Below are positions 29,237-42,586 of a stretch of DNA of 44,363 bases, one piece after another. This DNA comes from a virus (taxonomy: Duplodnaviria; Heunggongvirae; Uroviricota; Caudoviricetes): positions 1-44,363 of IMG/VR virus record IMGVR_UViG_2534681673_000008. The stretch is one strand, 5' to 3'. The notes below the pieces were generated by a model. It ran no database searches, was not told the DNA's origin, and saw nothing but the letters and a program-made list of their open reading frames with translations. The number at the start of each line of letters is the position of its first letter. Position 1 is the first letter of the stretch. The translations under genes were made by a program, and so were the position numbers.

Positions 29237-30166
29237 TTATGGTTTATTTTCTAGCTCTGATTTTTTGAAAGCTTCTATCAGACGATTAGCATCTTCTGTA
29301 CCACCAGGAAGCACGTTTGATTTTTTAAGAATATACGGTGGGAACTTTGTGGTTAAATATTCATGCTTAAACCATCTACGAAACTCTGACAATGCAGAAT
29401 CAGGATAGGCATTAATGATCTGAGGATTGGAACTTGCCTGAAGAAAATCTTCAGGGTAATAATGCTCACAGTCTACTCTTTCTCCAAATTCTGTTGCTAA
29501 CCCCTTTGCTTTCCAGTGACGCGCCCAGCAAGAACCAACACTGCCATCAGGTACGGTATGCTGATTAATCGCTAATCCAGCATTGATGAGATCTACCATC
29601 ATACCTGCAATTTCATTAAATATAATGAAATACCCATCAGGTATGGTTCCCTTATCTTTTAATAAAGATACTCTGTCATGGTAATGCCTCCACGGGTCCT
29701 CCGGTTGATATTTTAGCGCCTCGTATATAAATGTCTTGAGGCCTTTTTTAGCAAGCTCTCTGTAAGATCTAATTGCAGTCTCACTTTCTGCTTGTTTTGC
29801 TTCAAAGGCATAGTATTCAAGTATAGCCATGCATACAACATCTGGATAAGCATGGTACTCAACACCATTTCGAATTATTGGTATATAAAGTTTTTCATCT
29901 GTAAAACCTTCATTAAGAAGATATGTACCAATAAAAGTCATTCTTCCTTTTTTGAAAATACCGTTCTCAACGGATTGAGCCCACTCATCGGTAATTTCCT
30001 TGATTCGCAAACGCTGAACACCACAAACATTTGCCAACCCATTCTGAGTAAGGTACGGAATTCCGTTATCGAGTACCCCCATTTCTATACCGTTAATGAC
30101 AGCCTCTTGCTTAACATCTAAGTCTAAAGGTATGGATCTGAGGGAGGTAGTTCTCTGTTGTGCCAT
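29237..30166 (-). CDS. Hypothetical protein with KilA-N/Bro-N-like N-terminal domain; candidate BstA-like abortive-infection protein (309 aa from ATG at 30164-30166)
   Basis: Pattern GVLDNGIPYLTQNGLANVCGV resembles KilA-N; AT-rich gene in the nin-region hotspot where K-12 DLP12 has ybcL/ybcM. Confidence 0.55.
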   Translation of the reverse strand: MAQQRTTSLRSIPLDLDVKQEAVINGIEMGVLDNGIPYLTQNGLANVCGVQRLRIKEITDEWAQSVENGIFKKGRMTFIGTYLLNEGFTDEKLYIPIIRNGVEYHAYPDVVCMAILEYYAFEAKQAESETAIRSYRELAKKGLKTFIYEALKYQPEDPWRHYHDRVSLLKDKGTIPDGYFIIFNEIAGMMVDLINAGLAINQHTVPDGSVGSCWARHWKAKGLATEFGERVDCEHYYPEDFLQASSNPQIINAYPDSALSEFRRWFKHEYLTTKFPPYILKKSNVLPGGTEDANRLIEAFKKSELENKP

Positions 30167-30370
30167 TTTTGATCCTATCAATTTGAATTCATTGAAAAAA
30201 TTAGGTGTTCCCTATGCATTAGAACACTCATCATAGTAACCCCACTCGTTTGTGAAAAAAACTAATTTCACAATCAGTTAACTCTCAAAATAACTGATAT
30301 TCATACTCTCGCTATCCCATATATAGACATCCTTGTTTTAATACAACACTCATGGCTGGCGGCTATACTC

Positions 30371-30799: not shown

Positions 30800-32326
30800 T
30801 CAAAAATAAACCTCACCATCAACCATATATTTGAGAGTACTTATCGCCTGCTGGGCGGATATTGTTTTCATTAAAGGATAGTGTTTAAAAACAATGCCAT
30901 TCATAAAATAGATATCACAGGTTTTATTATCTGTATTGATTATGATTTTTTCGAATGTTTTATAGGCAAGTGTACGACATAGCTCTCGCCCATTTTTACT
31001 GGTTAAGTCAATAGCATGAAAATCACCAAGTGAGCTCACCGCTTTACTCTTCAAAGTTTTTAATGATACAGAAGCCCTTCGTAATTCCTTATCTAATACT
31101 CTGATTTTTTCTGCTATAGCGGTAACTTCAGGCGCAACAGATAATGCAGCAATTAAATTATTAATTTTCATCTGGAGCTCAATAATTTTCAACTCTAAAG
31201 TTTCATTAGCATCTTTCTTGTTTTCAACTGGTTGGATTTTACTACAATTAAAAAGCAACTCATTAATGATATTATAATCAACCAAATCTCTCTTTATTGA
31301 TGGCCTGTCACATCGATGCAGTCTTCTCATCGGACAAACATAATAGCCATGCAAACTTCCAGATACCGCATGAACAATCATGGTATTACCACAAGCCTCG
31401 CACTTCATAACTGTTCGAAGTAGATTTATCAACATAGGGTTTTTGCTACTATTGCTAATACCAAAAGGTGCCAACCGAATTTCCTGCACAGCGTAAAACA
31501 AATCATCTGATATGACTCTGGGATAATAGCCAGCGATTTCACTTATTCCTTTACCTCTTGCACGATATGAAGGTACGCATATACCTATCAGAGCTTTATT
31601 CGCTAATAATTTTTCAATTACAGAAGGTCCCCATGCACTTTCTTTTCCTGAGAAATTCTTTACAGCATGATCATTTAAATACTTGGCTATTGCATTCAAT
31701 GAGCGCCTTTCCATCCTGAGTTTAAAAATTAGCTCAATAGTTTTCACCCTGTCGGGGTCTGGAACAAAAGCCGTTCTTTTGTCATCTAAGGAGAGCCATC
31801 TCGGACAAGACGCCGTCATAATCGTGCCTGACTCCAGTGCATCCTGCCGTTTTTTCTTCCATGATAATTTAACCCGACTTGACTTTATCTCGCTTTCTTC
31901 ATTTGCCCTTTGTGCTATAAGTATGGCTTTTATTAATGAATATGGATCATTCAAAGAGTCAATATTATAGACTGTATTATCGCAAAGAGTTATAACATCA
32001 ATACCGTGATTCAAAATCAATTTCAGACGCTCAATCGCTTCACCGACTTTTTCTCTTGAAAGTCTGTCCAGACTTTCAACTAACAATGTAGTTCCTGGCA
32101 ATATATAACCATGCTCTATAGCATCTAAAAATTCCGAAAAAGCTCCTGATTGTGCATGCTTTCCTTTGAATGCACTTAATCCTAAATCTTCATATGTTAT
32201 GGTATCAAGATAATAATCACTATTTACCTTTAACCATTCAGCAATAAGTCTTCTCTGTCGGTTTAATGAGTCGCCAGACATCTGACCTGGTGATGAAAAT
32301 CGCATATATGCTATGGCTTTTTTCAT
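30800..32326 (-). CDS. ybcK: Large serine recombinase (YbcK-like, 508 aa)
   Basis: N-terminal resolvase catalytic motif AIAYMRFSSPGQ, recombinase domain and Cys-rich zinc-ribbon region. Confidence 0.85.
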   Translation of the reverse strand: MKKAIAYMRFSSPGQMSGDSLNRQRRLIAEWLKVNSDYYLDTITYEDLGLSAFKGKHAQSGAFSEFLDAIEHGYILPGTTLLVESLDRLSREKVGEAIERLKLILNHGIDVITLCDNTVYNIDSLNDPYSLIKAILIAQRANEESEIKSSRVKLSWKKKRQDALESGTIMTASCPRWLSLDDKRTAFVPDPDRVKTIELIFKLRMERRSLNAIAKYLNDHAVKNFSGKESAWGPSVIEKLLANKALIGICVPSYRARGKGISEIAGYYPRVISDDLFYAVQEIRLAPFGISNSSKNPMLINLLRTVMKCEACGNTMIVHAVSGSLHGYYVCPMRRLHRCDRPSIKRDLVDYNIINELLFNCSKIQPVENKKDANETLELKIIELQMKINNLIAALSVAPEVTAIAEKIRVLDKELRRASVSLKTLKSKAVSSLGDFHAIDLTSKNGRELCRTLAYKTFEKIIINTDNKTCDIYFMNGIVFKHYPLMKTISAQQAISTLKYMVDGEVYF

Positions 32327-32583: not shown

Positions 32584-32916
32584 TTAATGTGGTGTGCTTC
32601 GTGACAATAAATTAATAACCAACACACCGGCACAAATCAACATCATGCCTATAATGGCTGGCAGGTCCAGCCGTTGGCCGAAAAATCCCCATGACAGTAA
32701 GCTAATCAGGACAATACCGACTCCTGACCAGATAGCATAAGCAATCCCTGTAGGAATATAAGCCAGCGTCTGAGCTAATAACCAGAATGATGCACAATAA
32801 CAAATAATTGTACCAACAGATGGCCATAACCGTGTAAAACCTTCTGAAAACTTCATTAAGGTTGTACCAATGACCTCTGCAAGTATTGCACCACCAAGAT
32901 AAATATAAGGGTTCAT
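32584..32916 (-). CDS. emrE: SMR-family multidrug efflux protein EmrE (110 aa)
   Basis: Translation from MNPYIYLGGAILAEVIGTTLMKFSEGF matches EmrE; four TM helices. Confidence 0.9.
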   Translation of the reverse strand: MNPYIYLGGAILAEVIGTTLMKFSEGFTRLWPSVGTIICYCASFWLLAQTLAYIPTGIAYAIWSGVGIVLISLLSWGFFGQRLDLPAIIGMMLICAGVLVINLLSRSTPH

Positions 32917-32983
32917 AGCATATTCTTTCCTGTTCAAACTGGAGAGAATTGTACTACAGTTTGAAATCAACTCACCTGTTTCA

Positions 32984-35836: not shown

Positions 35837-35939
35837 AACAACCTCCGTGGTTAATTTGAATCAAGATTAAAACTATGGTTGTTTTAGTCAACAACCATTT
35901 TCGTTTGATGAAATAAAACCTTGGTTGTACATTTGGACT
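35837..35939. promoter_or_regulatory. Right operator/promoter region (oR, PR/PRM) with pseudo-palindrome TAAAACTATGGTTGTTTTA at 35868-35886
   Basis: Divergent repressor/cro arrangement; operator core TAAAACAAC recurs here and in the oL region. Confidence 0.6.
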
Positions 35940-36629
35940 ATGAAAACAACACTCTCAGAAAGACTTAAAGAAGCCAGATTAGCGCGAGGCCTTACACAAA
36001 AGGCGCTTGGGGATTTGGTCGGGGTTAGCCAAGCTGCTATTCAGAAAATCGAAACAGGGAAAGCTAATCAAACAACTAAAATCGTGGAGATCGCGAACGC
36101 TTTGGGTGTGCGCGCAGAATGGTTATCTTCTGGCGTTGGAAATATGTCAGACAGTACAGTGCAACCAATACAATCAACTGTCAGCCATTCCAAATACTTC
36201 AAGATTGACGTTCTTGATATAGAAGTCAGTGCTGGGCCGGGAGTCATCAACCGTGAGTTTGTAGAAGTTCTACGCTCGGTTGAGTACTCGTTTGACGATG
36301 CTCGTCATATGTTCGATGGTAGGAAGGCGGAAAATATCCGCATCATTAACGTGCGTGGTGACAGCATGTCAGGAACGATCGAACCAGGTGATCTGCTGTT
36401 CGTTGATATCACAGTTAAATCTTTCGACGGTGATGGTATCTATGCGTTTCTGTACGACGACACAGCCCATGTAAAGCGCCTGCAAATGATGAAGGATAAG
36501 CTGCTGGTCATCTCTGATAACAAAAGCTACTCACCGTGGGACCCGATCGAGAAAGACGAGATGAACCGGGTGTTCATCTTCGGTAAGGTTATTGGGAGCA
36601 TGCCGCAGACATATAGGAAGCATGGGTAG
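35940..36629 (+). CDS. cI: CI-type repressor (N-terminal HTH, C-terminal S24 LexA-like autopeptidase), non-lambda immunity
   Basis: HTH LTQKALGDLVGVSQAAIQKIETGK; S24 motifs GDSM (Ser) and HVKRL (Lys); ORF track begins at an upstream TTG (35925). Confidence 0.85.
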   Translation: MKTTLSERLKEARLARGLTQKALGDLVGVSQAAIQKIETGKANQTTKIVEIANALGVRAEWLSSGVGNMSDSTVQPIQSTVSHSKYFKIDVLDIEVSAGPGVINREFVEVLRSVEYSFDDARHMFDGRKAENIRIINVRGDSMSGTIEPGDLLFVDITVKSFDGDGIYAFLYDDTAHVKRLQMMKDKLLVISDNKSYSPWDPIEKDEMNRVFIFGKVIGSMPQTYRKHG

Positions 36630-36750
36630 TACCAATTAAAAATTATCAACTGGGCATTGTGCTCATTCAGTAAAGAACTAATTCCTATCTTTGCTCTAGG
36701 TAGTAATATTAAGCCACCGCAATAATATCTTTACCTAACGGCGTAAGAAT

Positions 36751-36778
36751 CCCGGTCACCGTGCCGGGTTTTCTTTTG
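36751..36778 (+). terminator. Rho-independent terminator after the repressor gene
   Basis: CCCGG-TCACCGTG-CCGGG followed by TTTTCTTTT. Confidence 0.65.
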
Positions 36779-36889
36779 CCCTCCCCTCATCACACACACC
36801 GTTAAAAAAACCACCATAACCTCGCTTCAGTTATCGCTATGCGATTCAAGTCACAAAATAAATCCATCCTAAATACAACCAGTTATATC

Positions 36890-36947
36890 TAAAACAACCA
36901 ATAAAACAACTTTTGTTGTTGACGGTAAAACAACTATAGTTTTAAAT
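36890..36947 (+). promoter_or_regulatory. Left operator/promoter (oL/pL): three direct TAAAACAAC operator cores (36890, 36902, 36926) overlapping -35 TTGACG (36919-36924) and -10 TTAAAT (36942-36947)
   Basis: Sigma70-like hexamers with 17-bp spacer; operator core shared with oR. Confidence 0.55.
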
Positions 36948-37140
36948 AAGTTCATCGCAACAACACAACGATACGGCAACCACCTGATTCACCGTTGCGA
37001 TGACCGCTTAGATCCGCAGTTTGAATTTCAGCAGGCTTCGGGGAGTGCGAGGGGTGAAACGGACGCGTGAACGTCGGTGTGACCAGCTGAAATCAACTCA
37101 ACATTTCATACCTTAGTCGCTTCAACGAGGCGGCTTAGTT

Positions 37141-37431
37141 ATGACAACCGGCGGCCATCCACCGCCTGAATACGCGCAGAAGTCTCTATATGTTCAGCAG
37201 CCCAGCTTACGGGCAGGAGTTTTTATGGTTCATCAACATTACGGAACGCAGACCGTTAATCGCGGCGCGGTCATGCCAGGAATGCTGGTCAAACACAAAG
37301 ATGGTACCTGGACTGCATCAGCTAATTTACGCGGACGGCTTTATCTGCATCGCGGCATCGAGCGCACTTATACCCGTGATTTGCTCGTGGAAGTTTTTCT
37401 CGACGGACGCGGTAACGGCCTGAATCGCTAA
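37141..37431 (+). CDS. Hypothetical protein (96 aa), first ORF of the pL operon in the N/kil position; not N-like
   Basis: ORF with GAGG about 10 nt upstream; no arginine-rich motif; lambda homology resumes at its 3-prime end. Confidence 0.4.
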
Positions 37432-37506
37432 TCCCCTTTCCTGTTTTCCTAATCAGCCTGGCATTTCGCGGGCGATATTTTCACAGCCATTTTCAGGAGT
37501 TCAGCC

Positions 37507-37803
37507 ATGAACGCTTATTACATTCAGGATCGTCTTGAGGCTCAGAGCTGGGCGCGTCACTACCAGCAGATCGCCCGTGAAGAGAAAGAGGCAGAACTGG
37601 CAGACGACATGGAAAAAGGCCTGCCCCAGCATTTGTTTGAATCGCTCTGCATCGATCATTTACAACGCTGCGGGGCCAGCAAAAAAGCCATTACCCGTGC
37701 ATTTGATGACGATGTTGAGTTTCAGGAGCGCATGGCAGAACACATCCGGTACATGGTTGAAACCATTGCTCACCATCAGGTTGATATTGATTCAGAGGTA
37801 TAA
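37507..37803 (+). CDS. gam: Gam, RecBCD inhibitor (GamS form, 98 aa)
   Basis: [45 protein letters not shown] matches lambda Gam. Confidence 0.9.
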
Positions 37804-37808
37804 AACGG

Positions 37809-38594
37809 ATGAGTACAGCACTCGCAACGCTGGCTGGGAAGCTGGCTGAACGTGTCGGCATGGATTCTGTCGACCCACAGGAACTGATCACCACTCTTCG
37901 CCAGACGGCATTTAAAGGCGATGCCAGCGATGCGCAGTTCATCGCATTGCTGATCGTCGCCAACCAGTACGGCCTTAATCCGTGGACGAAAGAAATTTAC
38001 GCCTTCCCTGATAAGCAGAACGGCATCGTTCCGGTGGTGGGCGTTGATGGCTGGTCCCGCATCATCAATGAAAACCAGCAGTTTGATGGCATGGACTTTG
38101 AGCAGGACAACGAATCCTGTACATGCCGGATTTACCGCAAGGACCGTAATCATCCGATCTGCGTTACCGAATGGATGGATGAATGCCGCCGCGAACCATT
38201 CAAAACCCGCGAAGGCAGAGAAATCACGGGGCCGTGGCAGTCGCATCCCAAACGGATGTTACGGCATAAAGCCATGATTCAGTGTGCCCGTCTGGCCTTC
38301 GGATTTGCTGGTATCTATGACAAGGATGAAGCCGAGCGCATTGTCGAAAATACCGCATACACTGCAGAACGCCAGCCGGAACGCGACATCACTCCGGTTA
38401 ACGATGAAACCATGCAGGAGATTAACACTCTGCTGATTGCCCTGGACAAAACATGGGATGACGACTTATTGCCGCTCTGTTCCCAGATATTTCGCCGCGA
38501 CATTCGCGCATCGTCAGAACTGACACAGGCCGAAGCAGTAAAAGCTCTTGGATTCCTGAAACAGAAAGCCACTGAGCAGAAGGTGGCAGCATGA
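37809..38594 (+). CDS. bet: Bet single-strand annealing recombinase (261 aa)
   Basis: Same length as lambda Bet; recognisable lambda Bet sequence. Confidence 0.95.
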
Positions 38595-39271
38595 CACCGG
38601 ACATTATCCTGCAGCGTACCGGGATCGACGTGAGAGCTGTCGAACAGGGGGATGATGCATGGCACAAATTACGGCTCGGCGTCATCACCGCTTCAGAAGT
38701 TCACAACGTGATAGCAAAGCCCCGCTCAGGAAAGAAGTGGCCTGACATGAAAATGTCCTACTTCCACACCCTGCTGGCTGAGGTTTGCACCGGTGTGGCT
38801 CCGGAAGTTAATGCTAAGGCGCTGGCCTGGGGAAAACAGTACGAGAATGACGCCAGAGCCCTGTTTGAGTTTACTTCCGGCGTGAATGTTACTGAATCCC
38901 CGATCATCTATCGCGACGAAAGTATGCGCACCGCCTGCTCTCCCGATGGTTTATGCAGTGACGGCAACGGCCTTGAGCTGAAATGCCCGTTTACCTCCCG
39001 GGATTTCATGAAGTTCCGGCTCGGTGGTTTCGAGGCCATAAAATCGGCTTACATGGCCCAGGTGCAGTACAGCATGTGGGTGACGCGAAAAGATGCCTGG
39101 TACTTTGCCAACTATGACCCGCGTATGAAGCGTGAAGGCCTGCATTATGTCGTGATTGAGCGGAATGAAAAGTACATGGCGAATTTTGACGAGATGGTGC
39201 CGGAGTTCATCGAAAAAATGGACGTGGCACTGGCTGAAATTGGTTTTGTATTTGGGGAGCAATGGCGATGA
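38591..39271 (+). CDS. exo: Exo, lambda exonuclease (226 aa)
   Basis: Same length as lambda Exo; recognisable lambda Exo sequence. Confidence 0.95.
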
Positions 39272-39426
39272 AGCATCCTCACGATAATATCCGGGTAGGC
39301 GCGATCACTTTCATCTACTCCATTACAAAGCGAGGCTGGGTATTTCCCGGCCTTTCTGTTATCAGAAATCCACTGAAAGCACAGCGGCTGGCTGAGAAGA
39401 TAAATAATAAACAGGAGGATATATGA
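39268..39426 (+). CDS. Orf60a-like small protein (52 aa); start overlaps exo stop and stop overlaps the next start
   Basis: Hand-translated [52 protein letters not shown] resembles lambda orf60a. Confidence 0.6.
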
Positions 39427-40487
39427 GTCAGGTTGGTAATCATTCATTCGAATTTCCGGCATCGCAAGGTGTACAGGGTGGTACTGTTACACTCTTCCTT
39501 ACCATACCAGGAAGATCGCTGGCTCGTTTCCTCGCTTCAGATAATTACGGCCATACACTGGCACGCTCTCAGCGAGAAATTAATCCAAATCGAGTACGAA
39601 AATTTTTAAATTATCTCACTAACGCAGACTCAAGAAATGAGCCTTTTATCATTCCCCCTCTCGTAGGTAACTGTGATTCGAATATAGAATTTGTACCGTT
39701 TGGCAACACAAATGTTGGTATAGCCAGAATTCCCCTCGACGCCGAAATAAAACTTTTTGATGGTCAACATCGTGCAGCTGGCATTGAGATATTTTGCCGA
39801 AGTTCCCCATCAACGCTCATGGTTCCCATGATGCTTACAATGAATCTGCCGCTAAAAACCCGGCAGCAGTTCTTTTCGGACATAAATAACAACGTTTCTA
39901 AGCCATCAGCGACCATCAATATGGCGTATAACGGCCGGGATGATATTGCTCAGGGAATGATATCCTTCCTGACCCAACATACTGTATTTGCCGATATAAC
40001 CGATTTTGAACACAACGTAGTGCCATTAAAAAGTAATATGTGGGTGAGTTTCAAGGCACTCACTGATGCAACGTCAAAGTTCGCCAGGAACGGCAATCAA
40101 CAACTTGAAATGGGATATATAGAATCTGTCTGGGAGGCATGGATTACACTAACTCAGATTGACTCAATCCGACATGGTGTACACCACGCTACGTACAAGC
40201 GCGATTATATTCAGTTCCATGGAGTAATGATTAACGCTTTCGGTTTTGCGGTTCAACAGATGATGGTTAATCATTCCATCGCAGAAATAACTTCTATGAT
40301 CGAAAAACTATGTGCAACTACCAGCTCTGCAGAAAGAGAGGATTTTTTTCTGATGGATAACTGGGCGGGGATCTGCACGAAAGCCAGCCAGGAAAAACTA
40401 TCTGTTATTGCCAATGTGGCAGCGCAGAAAGCAGCAGCAAACAGACTGATACAAGCTTTTACCAAAGGAAGTCTGGAATCAACTTAA
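39423..40487 (+). CDS. DGQHR-domain protein (DndB-like / ParB-Srx fold, 354 aa) in the accessory slot downstream of exo
   Basis: Hallmark motif FDGQHRAAGIE at about residue 104; size typical of DndB family; AGGAGG Shine-Dalgarno and ATGA overlap with orf60a. Confidence 0.7.
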   Translation: MSQVGNHSFEFPASQGVQGGTVTLFLTIPGRSLARFLASDNYGHTLARSQREINPNRVRKFLNYLTNADSRNEPFIIPPLVGNCDSNIEFVPFGNTNVGIARIPLDAEIKLFDGQHRAAGIEIFCRSSPSTLMVPMMLTMNLPLKTRQQFFSDINNNVSKPSATINMAYNGRDDIAQGMISFLTQHTVFADITDFEHNVVPLKSNMWVSFKALTDATSKFARNGNQQLEMGYIESVWEAWITLTQIDSIRHGVHHATYKRDYIQFHGVMINAFGFAVQQMMVNHSIAEITSMIEKLCATTSSAEREDFFLMDNWAGICTKASQEKLSVIANVAAQKAAANRLIQAFTKGSLEST

Positions 40488-40640
40488 TGAATCAACATTG
40501 TCTCATATCAGCATGCTGTACGGCGTCTTTAAGGAACGGTGAGCATGAAAAACAAAATCATCATGGAGCTACAGGCTCCTTTTTTATTATTCGCATTCAC
40601 CCTCAAGCGTATTAACCAACAATTCAGGGATTAATGAAAG

Positions 40641-40862
40641 ATGGCAGACATCATTGATTCAGCATCAGAAATTGAAGAATTACAGCGCAACACAGCAATA
40701 AAAATGCGCCGCCTGAACCACCAGGCTATATCTGCCACTCATTGTTGTGAGTGTGGCGATCCGATAGATGAACGAAGACGCCTGGCCGTTCAGGGTTGTC
40801 GGACTTGTGCAAGTTGCCAGGAGGATCTGGAACTTATCAGTAAACAGAGAGGTTCGAAGTGA
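40641..40862 (+). CDS. TraR/DksA-family C4 zinc-finger protein (lambda Orf73-like, 73 aa)
   Basis: CxxC...CxxC motif (CCECGDPIDERRRLAVQGCRTCASCQ); 73 aa. Confidence 0.8.
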   Translation: MADIIDSASEIEELQRNTAIKMRRLNHQAISATHCCECGDPIDERRRLAVQGCRTCASCQEDLELISKQRGSK

Positions 40863-41072: not shown

Positions 41073-41675
41073 TCATTCAGTATCATCACGCGCGGTCTGT
41101 GCATATGTCACTACCGCACCTAATGTATTAATTTTCTTTTCAACATAGATAATATTATCGTACTCATAATTGCCATACGGATAGCAAATGCGAATATTCT
41201 CATGTAGATCGGGGTCATCCACCTCAGCTCCAGAACAACTTTTTGAACTACCGGAAGTATACCGATACGGTGCAACATAAGACGATGTATCTCCAGGCAA
41301 AAAATAAGTTAGTGTTGTAAGAGGTATAATCAGAAAAAATCCAGCAAATATGCACATCCCTGCATAAACCTTAAGGTATGCTGACAGACTCTTCCAGCCG
41401 CTTTGTTTTACTATCCCCTTCTTAACCCAAAACAGAGATAACAGAAAAGCTATTCCCATGCTAAACAGAATGTAATAGTGGGATATACTCTGATTAAGAA
41501 ACGTGACCCTGTAAATATCTGCCCGCCACCAGAAGAAAAGGAAAATAAAGATCAGGCCTGAAACTGTCATGCAAATCAAATAAGGATACGAATCTTTTTT
41601 CATGTTTAGCGCCCATAAAATTTTTCCTGCCCCGGACAAATTTACCATCCATTTTTTGCGCAGAAAATAGCTCAT
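41073..41675 (-). CDS. Hypothetical polytopic membrane protein (200 aa; alternative ATG at 41601-41603), antisense to the early-left operon
   Basis: Three to four hydrophobic helices (e.g. YLICMTVSGLIFIFLFFWW); AT-rich; no Shine-Dalgarno evident at either start. Confidence 0.55.
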   Translation of the reverse strand: MSYFLRKKWMVNLSGAGKILWALNMKKDSYPYLICMTVSGLIFIFLFFWWRADIYRVTFLNQSISHYYILFSMGIAFLLSLFWVKKGIVKQSGWKSLSAYLKVYAGMCIFAGFFLIIPLTTLTYFLPGDTSSYVAPYRYTSGSSKSCSGAEVDDPDLHENIRICYPYGNYEYDNIIYVEKKINTLGAVVTYAQTARDDTE

Positions 41676-42385: not shown

Positions 42386-42586
42386 ATGCAACACGAACTA
42401 CAGCCTGATTCCCTGGTTGATTTGAAATTCATCATGGCTGATACTGGCTTTGGTAAAACCTTCATCTACGACCGGATTAAGTCCGGCGACCTGCCAAAAG
42501 CCAAAGTTATCCACGGGCGAGCAAGATGGTTATATCGTGACCATTGTGAATTCAAAAATAAGCTCTTAAGCCGCGCCAATGGGTAA
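42386..42586 (+). CDS. torI: Excisionase / recombination directionality factor, TorI(AlpA)-type (66 aa)
   Basis: Matches remembered KpLE1 TorI (MQHELQPDSLVDLKFIMADTGFGKTFIYDRI...); last prophage gene before the att core. Confidence 0.8.
   Translation: MQHELQPDSLVDLKFIMADTGFGKTFIYDRIKSGDLPKAKVIHGRARWLYRDHCEFKNKLLSRANG

Follow-up and report, generated by a model that had tools for sequence, protein, structure and literature searches.

A solitary DndB-family gene in the early-left operon of a lambda-like phage, a possible establishment or counter-defence factor with relatives in conjugative plasmids

Introduction

DndB (also called DptB), the first gene product of the dndBCDE operons, is an ATP-modulated DNA-binding regulator of its modification operon and acts as a sequence-specific transcriptional repressor (PMC4507180). 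A DndB-like protein has been shown to bind ATP and GTP (10.1101/2025.10.10.680097). In the 7-deazaguanine (dpd) system, DpdB is a DNA-stimulated ATPase dimer that is required for DpdA to modify DNA (PMC10164549). Among mobile elements, HerB (YfjB), a ParB-like protein of plasmid leading regions, can reprogram host transcription (PMC13370423), and anti-defence genes and orphan methyltransferases are over-represented in leading regions in general (PMC11541004). Our literature search found no study on solitary phage or plasmid DndB-like proteins; the Nat Commun paper on dnd distribution and the O157 island paper deal only with true dnd operons.

Here we describe a gene of the DndB/DGQHR family (the DGQHR gene) in a lambda-like prophage. 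The window is the whole stretch of phage DNA analysed, 44,363 nucleotides in length; coordinates refer to it and + denotes its plus strand.

The DGQHR gene and its position

The DGQHR gene (39423-40487, +) encodes a protein of 354 aa and is located on the early-left strand between exo and a xis/TorI-like gene (42386-42586), which places it among the accessory genes of the exo-xis position. The gam, bet and exo (Red) genes (37507-39271, +) are directly upstream in the same operon and are followed by orf60a (39268-39426, +), which shows ATGA overlaps at both ends: its start with the stop of exo, and its stop with the start of the DGQHR gene. The orf60a product is assigned by profile search to DUF1317 (PF07026, E 1e-30), and an in-frame ATG at 39262 is an alternative start. 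An AGGAGG Shine-Dalgarno sequence (39413-39418, +) is found within the 3' end of orf60a, 4 nt before the ATG of the DGQHR gene. The original prediction had described a 354-aa open reading frame with the motif FDGQHR, preceded by AGGAGG and an ATGA overlap, standing alone in the exo-xis slot and translationally coupled to orf60a. All of this agrees with the sequence and the annotation, and DGQHR occurs nowhere else in the window in any of the six reading frames. The coordinates proposed at that time, 39268-40487, do contain the gene, but they take in orf60a as well and so cover two genes. The next gene downstream, an orf73-type TraR/DksA zinc-finger gene (40641-40862, +), is separated by a gap of 153 nt and is not coupled to the DGQHR gene. 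We rejected orf60a as an obligate partner, since it is found upstream in many loci but not in all of them, and lambda has orf60a without the DGQHR gene.

Alignment with lambda delimits an imported cassette of 1,097 bp (39413-40509, +), whose GC content is 43% versus 52% for gam-exo. This cassette stands in for 462 bp of lambda, comprising orf63, orf61 and 94 bp beyond, and its flanks are 96.7% and 96.9% identical to those of lambda. It joins these flanks at the ribosome-binding site on the left and 22 bp past the stop codon on the right. The cassette contains no non-coding DNA; therefore, no cis site travels along with the gene, which points to a target elsewhere. The view that this is not a lambda function is correct, the gene being absent from lambda, whose slot holds orf63 and orf61. 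These two lambda genes, precisely replaced by the cassette, share their genomic slot and expression context with the DGQHR gene; however, they code for proteins of about 60 aa with no sequence or fold kinship to the DGQHR protein.

Expression signals

Since its start overlaps orf60a, the DGQHR gene lacks its own promoter region. A candidate early-left promoter (TTGACG-17-TTAAAT; 36907-36950, +) was recognised by eye and is overlapped by ACAAC-type palindromes that are also present in the cI/cro intergenic region; a consensus promoter scan did not flag this candidate. Inside orf60a, a terminator-like hairpin (39332-39354, +) that is conserved in lambda, and that bears a terminator annotation in phage O276, might reduce transcription of the DGQHR gene if polymerase does not read through it. 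Another terminator-like hairpin with a T-tract (40565-40589, +), common to lambda, is located downstream of the cassette. Neither an N-like open reading frame nor a lambda boxA is recognisable in the phage, and for this reason the idea of an N-antiterminated pL transcript was dropped. The absence of both elements, together with the hairpin just upstream, makes the expression level of the DGQHR gene uncertain. Thus, of the earlier proposal that the gene is co-expressed with the Red genes from pL, the coupling to orf60a stands, while expression from pL is presumed.

Family, fold and conserved motifs

The protein matches the Pfam DndB family (PF14072; E 5.1e-46, 157.7 bits against a cutoff of 29.1), the NCBIfam DGQHR model TIGR03187 (187.1 bits against a cutoff of 58.85), the PADLOC DndB model (4.7e-37) and PHROG 7901, a family of unknown function (714 bits). 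The profile search against DndB/DGQHR models, suggested as a check of the family assignment, therefore gave matches far beyond chance. The score against TIGR03233, the equivalog of true DndB, is 106.2 bits and falls below the threshold of 328 bits, and the identity is 23% to E. coli DndB and 22-29% to true DndB overall, over about 290 aa. Judged by these scores, the protein is a member of the DndB/DGQHR family and not a true DndB. As anticipated, its N-terminal domain (about aa 8-140) adopts the ParB/sulfiredoxin (Srx) fold. The canonical ParB models PF02195 and PF17762 give no match at E<=1, the similarity to ParB being at the level of the fold only. The C-terminal domain (about aa 175-350) is all-helical. 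A PDB sequence search with the protein returned no relative and, because no solved structure is related to the C-terminal domain, DNA binding is suggested solely by the homology to DndB. Pfam finds only DndB in this protein, with no HTH, canonical ParB or effector domain, and in ten longer relatives (430-661 aa) it found no fused domain hinting at function.

Three motifs belong to the predicted NTP site. Motif I (RSQREINPNR, aa 48-57; 39564-39593, +) contains R48, Q50, R51 and R57, which are invariant in the alignments even against true DndB, and we read it as the counterpart of ParB box I and of the DUF262 'QR' motif. Motif II (FDGQHR, aa 112-117; 39756-39773, +) corresponds to the phosphate-binding GxxR loop of ParB and to the DGQQR of DpdB and SspE, an equivalence that follows PMC10164549. 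Motif III (RQQFFSDINNNVSKP, aa 147-161; 39861-39905, +), in which F151, D153, N155 and P161 are invariant, has low confidence in the AF2 model, as expected for a ligand-ordered loop. The NTP-site motifs R-x-QR, DGQHR and F-x-D-x-N are invariant in the phage proteins, the plasmid proteins and true DndB.

Search for dnd and dpd genes

When E. coli DndC, DndD and DndE, as well as DptF, DptG and DptH, were used as tblastn queries against the window and 120 loci, no match was obtained in the window or at any locus of at least 55% identity; the sole true dnd operon among the 120 loci accompanies a homologue of 25% identity (locus L027). The PGAP annotation of an identical prophage contains no dnd gene and no TGT-like or dpd gene, and the motif of the protein is DGQHR, not the DGQQR of the dpd system. 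Regarding the complete Dnd defence set as defined by PADLOC, only the DndB model was matched and the neighbouring genes have no PADLOC match. It had been considered that homologues might always sit inside complete dnd or dpd operons, which would speak for an operon remnant; among about 95 close homologues, none is in a dnd or dpd operon.

Distribution and relatives in phages and prophages

The DGQHR gene is present at an identity of at least 99% in 284 of 5,426 complete E. coli genomes (5%), and 282 of these 284 hold at least 80% of the gene. Its polymorphic sites (17 synonymous versus 5 nonsynonymous) indicate purifying selection; the gene is intact and constrained.

The protein belongs to a clade specific to mobile elements. 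This clade is large and includes many prophages and many conjugative plasmids, so that the implication that a solitary DndB-like gene is unusual was mistaken. Orthologues of 55-73% identity are found across Enterobacterales in early operons of prophages, often followed by orphan DNA methyltransferases. The roughly 95 close homologues lie on the early-left strand, 3' of recombination modules and 5' of int, and most commonly they overlap the gene before them by 4 nt (56 loci). Many different phage backbones have acquired the gene independently.

Orphan methyltransferases (MT-A70, phage Dam, N6_N4 and C5) are located up to three genes downstream in 26 out of 79 distinct contexts, an association that could be hitch-hiking in a generally variable accessory region. 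An independent Vibrio phage carries a DGQHR gene followed by a methyltransferase and then int, and in the Pseudoalteromonas phage KB12-38 a DndB-like gene is found amid PAPS reductases and a C5 methyltransferase. The DGQHR gene has no linked modification enzyme in the window or in any of the 30 loci with this allele. Methyltransferases were therefore rejected as obligate partners of this allele, for which a modification role would use host enzymes or be dispensable.

Relatives in conjugative plasmids

A tblastn search with the DGQHR protein gave matches in 1,071 plasmid records, mostly of the IncL/M type. The nearest non-phage relatives (36-47% identity) are encoded in plasmid leading regions beside ArdA, KlcA, PsiA and ssb. 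For instance, the genes after P0121 (45% identity) encode ArdA, Hha and KlcA, and NikA and the relaxase are also downstream of it. In IncL/M plasmids the DGQHR-type gene has the same orientation as klcA and ssb and lies 8-9 kb ahead of mobA/traI. In a 438-aa subfamily, the next genes code for PsiA and a KlcA/ArdB-type protein. The position of oriT and the orientation of the T-strand are presumed from the position of the relaxase. If the leading-region class is taken to comprise genes within the first ~30 ORFs counted from oriT that adjoin known anti-defence genes and share their orientation, the plasmid homologues of 36-47% identity would, with oriT so placed, answer to this description, and the phage gene is linked to the class by homology only. 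One plasmid subclade pairs the DGQHR-type gene with a DndC-like PAPS reductase, a partner absent from the phage copies. In the very successful pOXA-48-like plasmids the homologue is disrupted by IS1B, and it is therefore dispensable for transfer under many conditions.

Possible functions

The reading that we tentatively put first is that this is a functional gene for a DndB-family, ParB/Srx-fold nucleotide-binding DNA protein that may help the DNA of an incoming element to become established or to evade restriction. Transcription would start, for this gene as for the Red genes, at the repressor-controlled early-left promoter, with translation coupled to that of orf60a; because of these two features, the protein would appear within the first minutes of infection or induction and be absent from the lysogen. 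By analogy with DndB and DpdB, an ATP/GTP-gated dimer would load onto DNA and influence whether the DNA of the incoming element is modified or restricted, either by helping or regulating modification enzymes or by masking the DNA. The protein could in this way promote establishment or counter host defence, sharing the functional niche of ArdA, KlcA, PsiA and the orphan methyltransferases that neighbour its relatives. The analysis establishes the gene with its family and fold, the conserved NTP-site motifs, the origin of the cassette, the purifying selection and the pattern of contexts, and from there we infer the timing of expression, the NTP dependence, the DNA binding and the counter-defence role. 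A bolder version, which we consider decidedly unlikely, would see in the solitary DndB-like proteins, common to conjugative plasmids and temperate phages, a new class of factors with broad anti-restriction activity. Such proteins might form NTP-dependent heterodimers with, or compete against, the homologous ParB/DUF262 sensor domains of host nucleases that sense modification (SspE, DndI and GmrSD/BrxU) or, alternatively, boost the modification of incoming DNA in a Ral-like manner. If true, phages and plasmids would share a tool against DNA-modification-based immunity.

A somewhat unlikely alternative is that the protein reprograms host or phage transcription, acting as an NTP-gated ParB-like clamp on chromosomal sites early after entry and shifting physiology or the lysis-lysogeny decision, in the manner of HerB or of orf63/orf61. 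The gene occupies exactly the slot of orf63-orf61, which modulate the development of lambda and Stx phages (PMC5575149, PMC6213356); true DndB is itself a repressor, HerB offers a precedent for transcriptional reprogramming, and the cassette brings no cis site. However, Pfam detects no HTH or canonical ParB domain, the 22-29% identity to DndB does not allow operator specificity to be deduced, and it would be left unexplained why methyltransferases and DndC-like enzymes are repeatedly found next to such genes.

Prophage defence or superinfection exclusion, in which a ParB/DUF262-like NTPase sensor would block incoming or modified foreign DNA, is improbable. The protein has no effector domain, the gene is coupled inside a repressor-controlled early operon with no promoter of its own, and PADLOC sees just an orphan DndB component. 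Furthermore, the plasmid relatives are found amid leading-region anti-defence genes and not in defence islands. The genomic context thus favours anti-defence or establishment over prophage defence, and nothing ties the protein specifically to Dnd, Ssp or Dpd.

Another proposal, very unlikely, is that the protein is a DndB mimic directed against host phosphorothioation, which would bind the dnd promoter or DndCDE/DndFGH and disarm PT-based immunity. The homology to DndB extends over about 290 aa, a plasmid subclade has the DndC-like partner, and dndBCDE-dptFGH islands do occur in E. coli (PMC6408774). Nevertheless, the protein and E. coli DndB share only 23% identity, and restriction by DndFGH would not be stopped by repressing modification, as reasoned from the roles described in PMC4507180 and PMC11662687. 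In addition, dnd clusters are uncommon, occurring in 1.8% of bacterial genomes (PMC8569181), while 5% of E. coli genomes and many plasmids have the gene.

Finally, a non-functional remnant of a dnd-like or DndB-DndC-like module, passively carried, might be suspected from the DndC-like partner kept by some plasmid relatives and missing from the phage copies, and from the dispensability of the gene in pOXA-48-like plasmids, but this is scarcely credible and was rejected as largely refuted by the frame intact in 282 of 284 genomes and the 17:5 ratio indicating constraint, to which the invariant active-site motifs, the optimised ribosome-binding site and translational coupling, and the independent placement into many phage backbones are added. 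Defence, dnd-repressor mimicry and operon remnant are all less likely than establishment or evasion of restriction.

Significance and comparison with known systems

If the establishment or counter-defence role is true, a single family would link the delayed-early operons of temperate phages with the zygotically expressed leading regions of conjugative plasmids, which had been unconnected for this family, and the plasmids concerned include clinically important IncL/M carbapenemase plasmids. A ParB/Srx NTPase would then join the anti-defence and establishment toolkit, and DndB-type proteins would have a role outside dnd operons. The system is tractable, since the cassette is clean and bordered by isogenic lambda sequence in a lambda-like phage, and a natural IS1B knock-out is available in pOXA-48-like plasmids.

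DndB and the DGQHR protein share PF14072, an alignment of about 290 aa that includes the helical C-terminal domain, and the motifs R-x-QR, DGQHR and F-x-D-x-N. However, DndB heads its own autoregulated operon and adjoins dndC, dndD and dndE, whereas the DGQHR gene sits in a phage early operon and none of these genes is present in the window or beside any close homologue. DpdB, with its DGQQR motif, is DUF262-like and needs DpdA, while the DGQHR gene has no TGT-like or dpd neighbour. IbrA/IbrB-type prophage pairs, formed by a PAPS reductase and a ParB-like protein, combine a ParB/Srx protein with a DNA-modifying enzyme. The same theme of a ParB/Srx NTPase and a DNA-modifying enzyme in a mobile element is common to this clade and to ParB-methyltransferase fusions (10.1101/2025.10.10.680097). 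Fusions and pairs alike differ from the protein described here, which is neither fused to a modification enzyme nor adjoining one.

HerB, encoded in the leading region of F-type plasmids, is like the DGQHR protein in having a ParB fold, a mobile element as carrier and no ParA partner (PMC13370423). HerB, a canonical ParB CTPase, contains an HTH and a special dimerisation module, whereas the DGQHR protein is of the DndB branch and matches neither PF02195 nor HTH_ParB. HerB is expressed right after entry, as the DGQHR protein would also be, and both are encoded in establishment/anti-defence neighbourhoods; the likeness between them is an analogy of niche and not of family.

Gene organization and expression

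The DGQHR gene of the window (39423-40487, + strand) belongs to an early-left operon in which it follows lambda-type gam (37507-37803), bet (37809-38594) and exo (38591-39271) and the DUF1317 gene orf60a (39268-39426), and precedes an orf73-type TraR/DksA zinc-finger gene (40641-40862) and a TorI/Xis-like gene (42386-42586), all on the + strand. Every feature described in the original prediction was found: the 354-aa ORF, the FDGQHR motif (residues 112-117, the sole DGQHR in a six-frame translation of the window), an AGGAGG 4 nt 5' of the ATG, and an ATGA common to the orf60a stop and the DGQHR gene start. The exo stop and orf60a start also overlap in an ATGA.

Co-expression with the Red genes (gam-bet-exo) from pL had been proposed as well. 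A repressor gene (35925-36629, +) lies upstream of the early-left genes on the same strand and is followed by a terminator. Upstream of the Red genes, TTGACG-17-TTAAAT (about 36919-36947, +) makes a plausible promoter. ACAAC palindromes overlap it and recur between cI and cro, and no better candidate was predicted between about 36947 and the DGQHR gene. Early expression under repressor control, along with the Red genes, is therefore probable. Two caveats qualify this: no N-like ORF or lambda boxA was recognisable between the repressor gene and gam (36630-37510), although the lambda-type terminator hairpins downstream of that interval are retained, and the terminator-like hairpin kept from lambda inside orf60a could attenuate transcription into the DGQHR gene.

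Antisense inside this operon, and flanked by terminator-like hairpins, is a gene for a 200-aa predicted membrane protein (41073-41675, -). The C-terminal part of the protein has a match to PHROG 1416 (unknown function), and the gene has the look of a moron expressed in the lysogen. Elsewhere, the nin/replication-proximal region carries the abortive-infection defence gene bstA (29237-30181, -; PADLOC BstA, 402 bits, E 3.7e-121). Genes for a large serine recombinase (Resolvase, Recombinase and Zn_ribbon_recom domains; 30800-32326, -) and an SMR-family small multidrug-resistance transporter (32584-32970, -) lie between the replication genes and the nin region, and may constitute an element inserted within the prophage.

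The DGQHR gene is a clean replacement of lambda DNA. Window positions 39413-40509 (1,097 bp) take the place of 462 bp of lambda (orf63, orf61 and 94 bp beyond), between flanks that are 96.7% (exo-orf60a) and 96.9% (terminator-like hairpin and orf73) identical to lambda. The left junction is at the ribosome-binding site and the right one lies 22 bp past the stop codon. The cassette has a GC content of 43%, versus 52% in the Red genes. It contains no promoter and almost no non-coding sequence, so a DNA target of the protein, if there is one, is not carried along with the cassette.

Family assignment and conserved residues

Profile searches bore out the proposed DndB/DGQHR relationship: the protein matches Pfam DndB (PF14072, E 5e-46) and the NCBIfam "DGQHR domain" (TIGR03187, 187 bits versus a cutoff of 58.85). 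However, it reaches just 106 bits against the DndB equivalog model TIGR03233 (cutoff 328), and its identity to the true DndB used as reference, encoded in the E. coli NADC 6564 dndBCDE-dptFGH island, is 23% over 292 residues. PADLOC calls it an orphan DndB component and PHROGs places it in phrog_7901, of "unknown function". A PDB sequence search gave no relative among solved structures. The AlphaFold2 model (31 homologues, mean pLDDT 79) predicts a beta-rich N-domain and an all-helical C-domain, and its matches in a viral structure library are DndB-like, GmrSD-N/DUF262 and ParB-like proteins.

When the phage and plasmid proteins are aligned with true DndB, residues R48, Q50, R51, R57, D113-G-Q-H-R117, F151, D153, N155, P161, Y169 and E196 are invariant. 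They correspond to the nucleotide-site motifs of ParB and DUF262 NTPases, as described for DpdB and SspE (PMC10164549), and binding of both ATP and GTP has been described for a bacterial DndB-like protein (10.1101/2025.10.10.680097). The protein is concluded to belong to the DGQHR/DndB domain family and to have what appears to be an intact NTP site, but not to be a DndB orthologue.

The E. coli dndBCDE-dptFGH island has a second DGQHR-domain gene between dndE and dptH (homologue locus L005, 8108-9268, -), apparently split into two ORFs. It scores only 27 bits against the window protein and is unrelated in detail.

Conservation

The gene is held at >=99% identity, always beside DUF1317, by 284 of 5,426 complete E. 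coli genomes, in 282 of which at least 80% of its length is present; 16 nucleotide alleles show 17 synonymous and 5 nonsynonymous polymorphic sites. Orthologues 55-73% identical occur across Escherichia, Salmonella, Klebsiella, Enterobacter, Citrobacter, Serratia, Cronobacter and others, and in isolated phages including SPN1S, SPN9TCW, SPC32H and Klebsiella phage ST101-KPC2phi6.3. Two records look like contamination or mis-binning: "Campylobacter phage CJLB-4" (MW057783.1, 48,361 bp), which matches the lambda-type flanks (exo/orf60a and downstream) like a lambda genome, and a 5.5-kb contig assigned to a Bacillota MAG (JAEWTL010000063.1, L006), 100% identical to the E. coli prophage gene.

Genomic context in phages and prophages

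Neighbouring genes were clustered for a sample of 120 loci. All close homologues lie on the early-left strand of prophages, 3' of a recombination module (Red exo/bet, RecE/RecT or others) and 5' of the integrase. In the commonest arrangement (56 loci) the gene overlaps its upstream neighbour by 4 nt. The backbones differ widely, so the gene has come to occupy this functional position repeatedly.

An orphan DNA methyltransferase (MT-A70, phage Dam PF05869, or N6_N4 plus C5) lies at most three genes downstream in 26 of 79 distinct contexts. In Salmonella phage SPN1S (L003, 6073-7658) the end of the DGQHR gene and the start of the methyltransferase gene share 4 nt, an overlap that suggests co-translation. 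Two independent lineages repeat the association: in the temperate Vibrio phage Va_PF430-3_p42 (L120, 5992-9187) DGQHR, a directly adjacent 3' DNA methyltransferase gene and int follow in series, and Pseudoalteromonas phage KB12-38 has a DndB-like gene amid PAPS reductases and a C5 methyltransferase. For the window allele, none of 30 loci has a linked modification enzyme, nor does the PGAP annotation of an identical prophage list one. The gene proved standalone, as predicted: tblastn with E. coli DndC, DndD, DndE, DptF, DptG and DptH gave no match in the window or beside close homologues, and the same dnd/dpt queries revealed a true dnd operon context only for a 25%-identical Halobacteriovorax gene.

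Plasmid relatives

By tblastn (E-value limit 1e-5, which takes in some true DndB genes, e.g. on Vibrio plasmids), 1,071 plasmid records contain relatives, and 885 of these records are typed as conjugative. Pairwise identities (phage-phage 62-74%, phage-plasmid 36-47%, versus true DndB 22-29%) show phage and plasmid alleles as one coherent mobile-element clade.

The closest non-phage representative, P0121 (45% identity), has the order DnaJ, DGQHR, ArdA, Hha, KlcA, with a NikA-relaxase further downstream; in a 438-aa subfamily (Buttiauxella, Dryocola, Pseudescherichia) the genes that come next encode PsiA and a KlcA/ArdB-type protein. In IncL/M plasmids the homologue (427 aa, 42% identity) is found 8-9 kb ahead of mobA/traI and has the same orientation as ssb and a KlcA-type antirestriction gene. 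An IS1B insertion splits the gene in the pOXA-48-like IncL plasmids (~63.5 kb), which have spread worldwide, and thereby supplies a natural knock-out. A further subclade (37-38% identity; L115, 8001-11538; L119, 6983-11660; L109, 9001-10653) continues with a 669-aa DndC-like PAPS reductase, 28-30% identical to E. coli DndC. DndD and DndE are missing from this subclade, and the pair may form a two-gene DNA-modification module.

The leading region of a conjugative plasmid is the first DNA to enter the recipient. From the relaxase position, the plasmid DGQHR genes seem to point to oriT and could be transcribed from the T-strand. Leading regions are statistically enriched in anti-restriction, anti-SOS and orphan methyltransferase genes (PMC11541004).

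Possible functions

The DGQHR gene encodes a constrained early-operon protein of ParB/Srx fold with conserved NTP-site motifs, and the genes of its mobile-element clade stand near anti-restriction genes and genes for DNA-modifying enzymes. DndB represses dndBCDE and is modulated by ATP (PMC4507180; Xia et al. 2019, cited in PMC10164549). DpdB forms a dimer with DNA-stimulated ATPase activity, and DpdA depends on it to modify DNA (PMC10164549). Both of these characterised relatives act on DNA in an ATP-dependent manner and serve DNA-modification modules. By analogy, the most economical reading, held tentatively and at rather less than even probability, is an NTP-gated DNA-loading dimer, made once the element enters or is induced, that would improve survival of element DNA against restriction, either by helping or regulating modification enzymes or by masking DNA.

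A HerB-like factor that reprogrammes the host or the choice between lysis and lysogeny, which fits the orf63/orf61 slot and the DndB repressor precedent (PMC13370423, PMC5575149, PMC6213356), is unlikely, though it is the first rival to consider. A prophage defence or exclusion factor is improbable, given a protein with no effector domain, a gene with no promoter of its own and a neighbourhood of anti-defence character; a specific anti-Dnd mimic is more doubtful still. A non-functional remnant is scarcely credible, since the near-complete gene in 282 of 284 genomes, the 17:5 ratio of synonymous to nonsynonymous sites and the widespread orthologues exclude decay.

Relation to known systems

The domain assignment is already public ("DGQHR domain-containing protein", phrog_7901) and the gene as such is not new. 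No publication on solitary DndB-like proteins of phages or plasmids came up in a literature search. Apparently undescribed are the separation of the clade from true DndB, its presence in both phage early operons and plasmid leading regions, and the repeated pairing of its genes with those for methyltransferases or DndC-like enzymes. The gene is a clean, testable candidate, for which a protective DNA-loading mechanism is put forward as a proposal only. The occurrence of ParB-like proteins on mobile elements is itself familiar. With true DndB, the regulator of dndBCDE phosphorothioation operons, this protein has the DGQHR-family motifs in common but differs in its low identity and in its TIGR03233 score below the cutoff.
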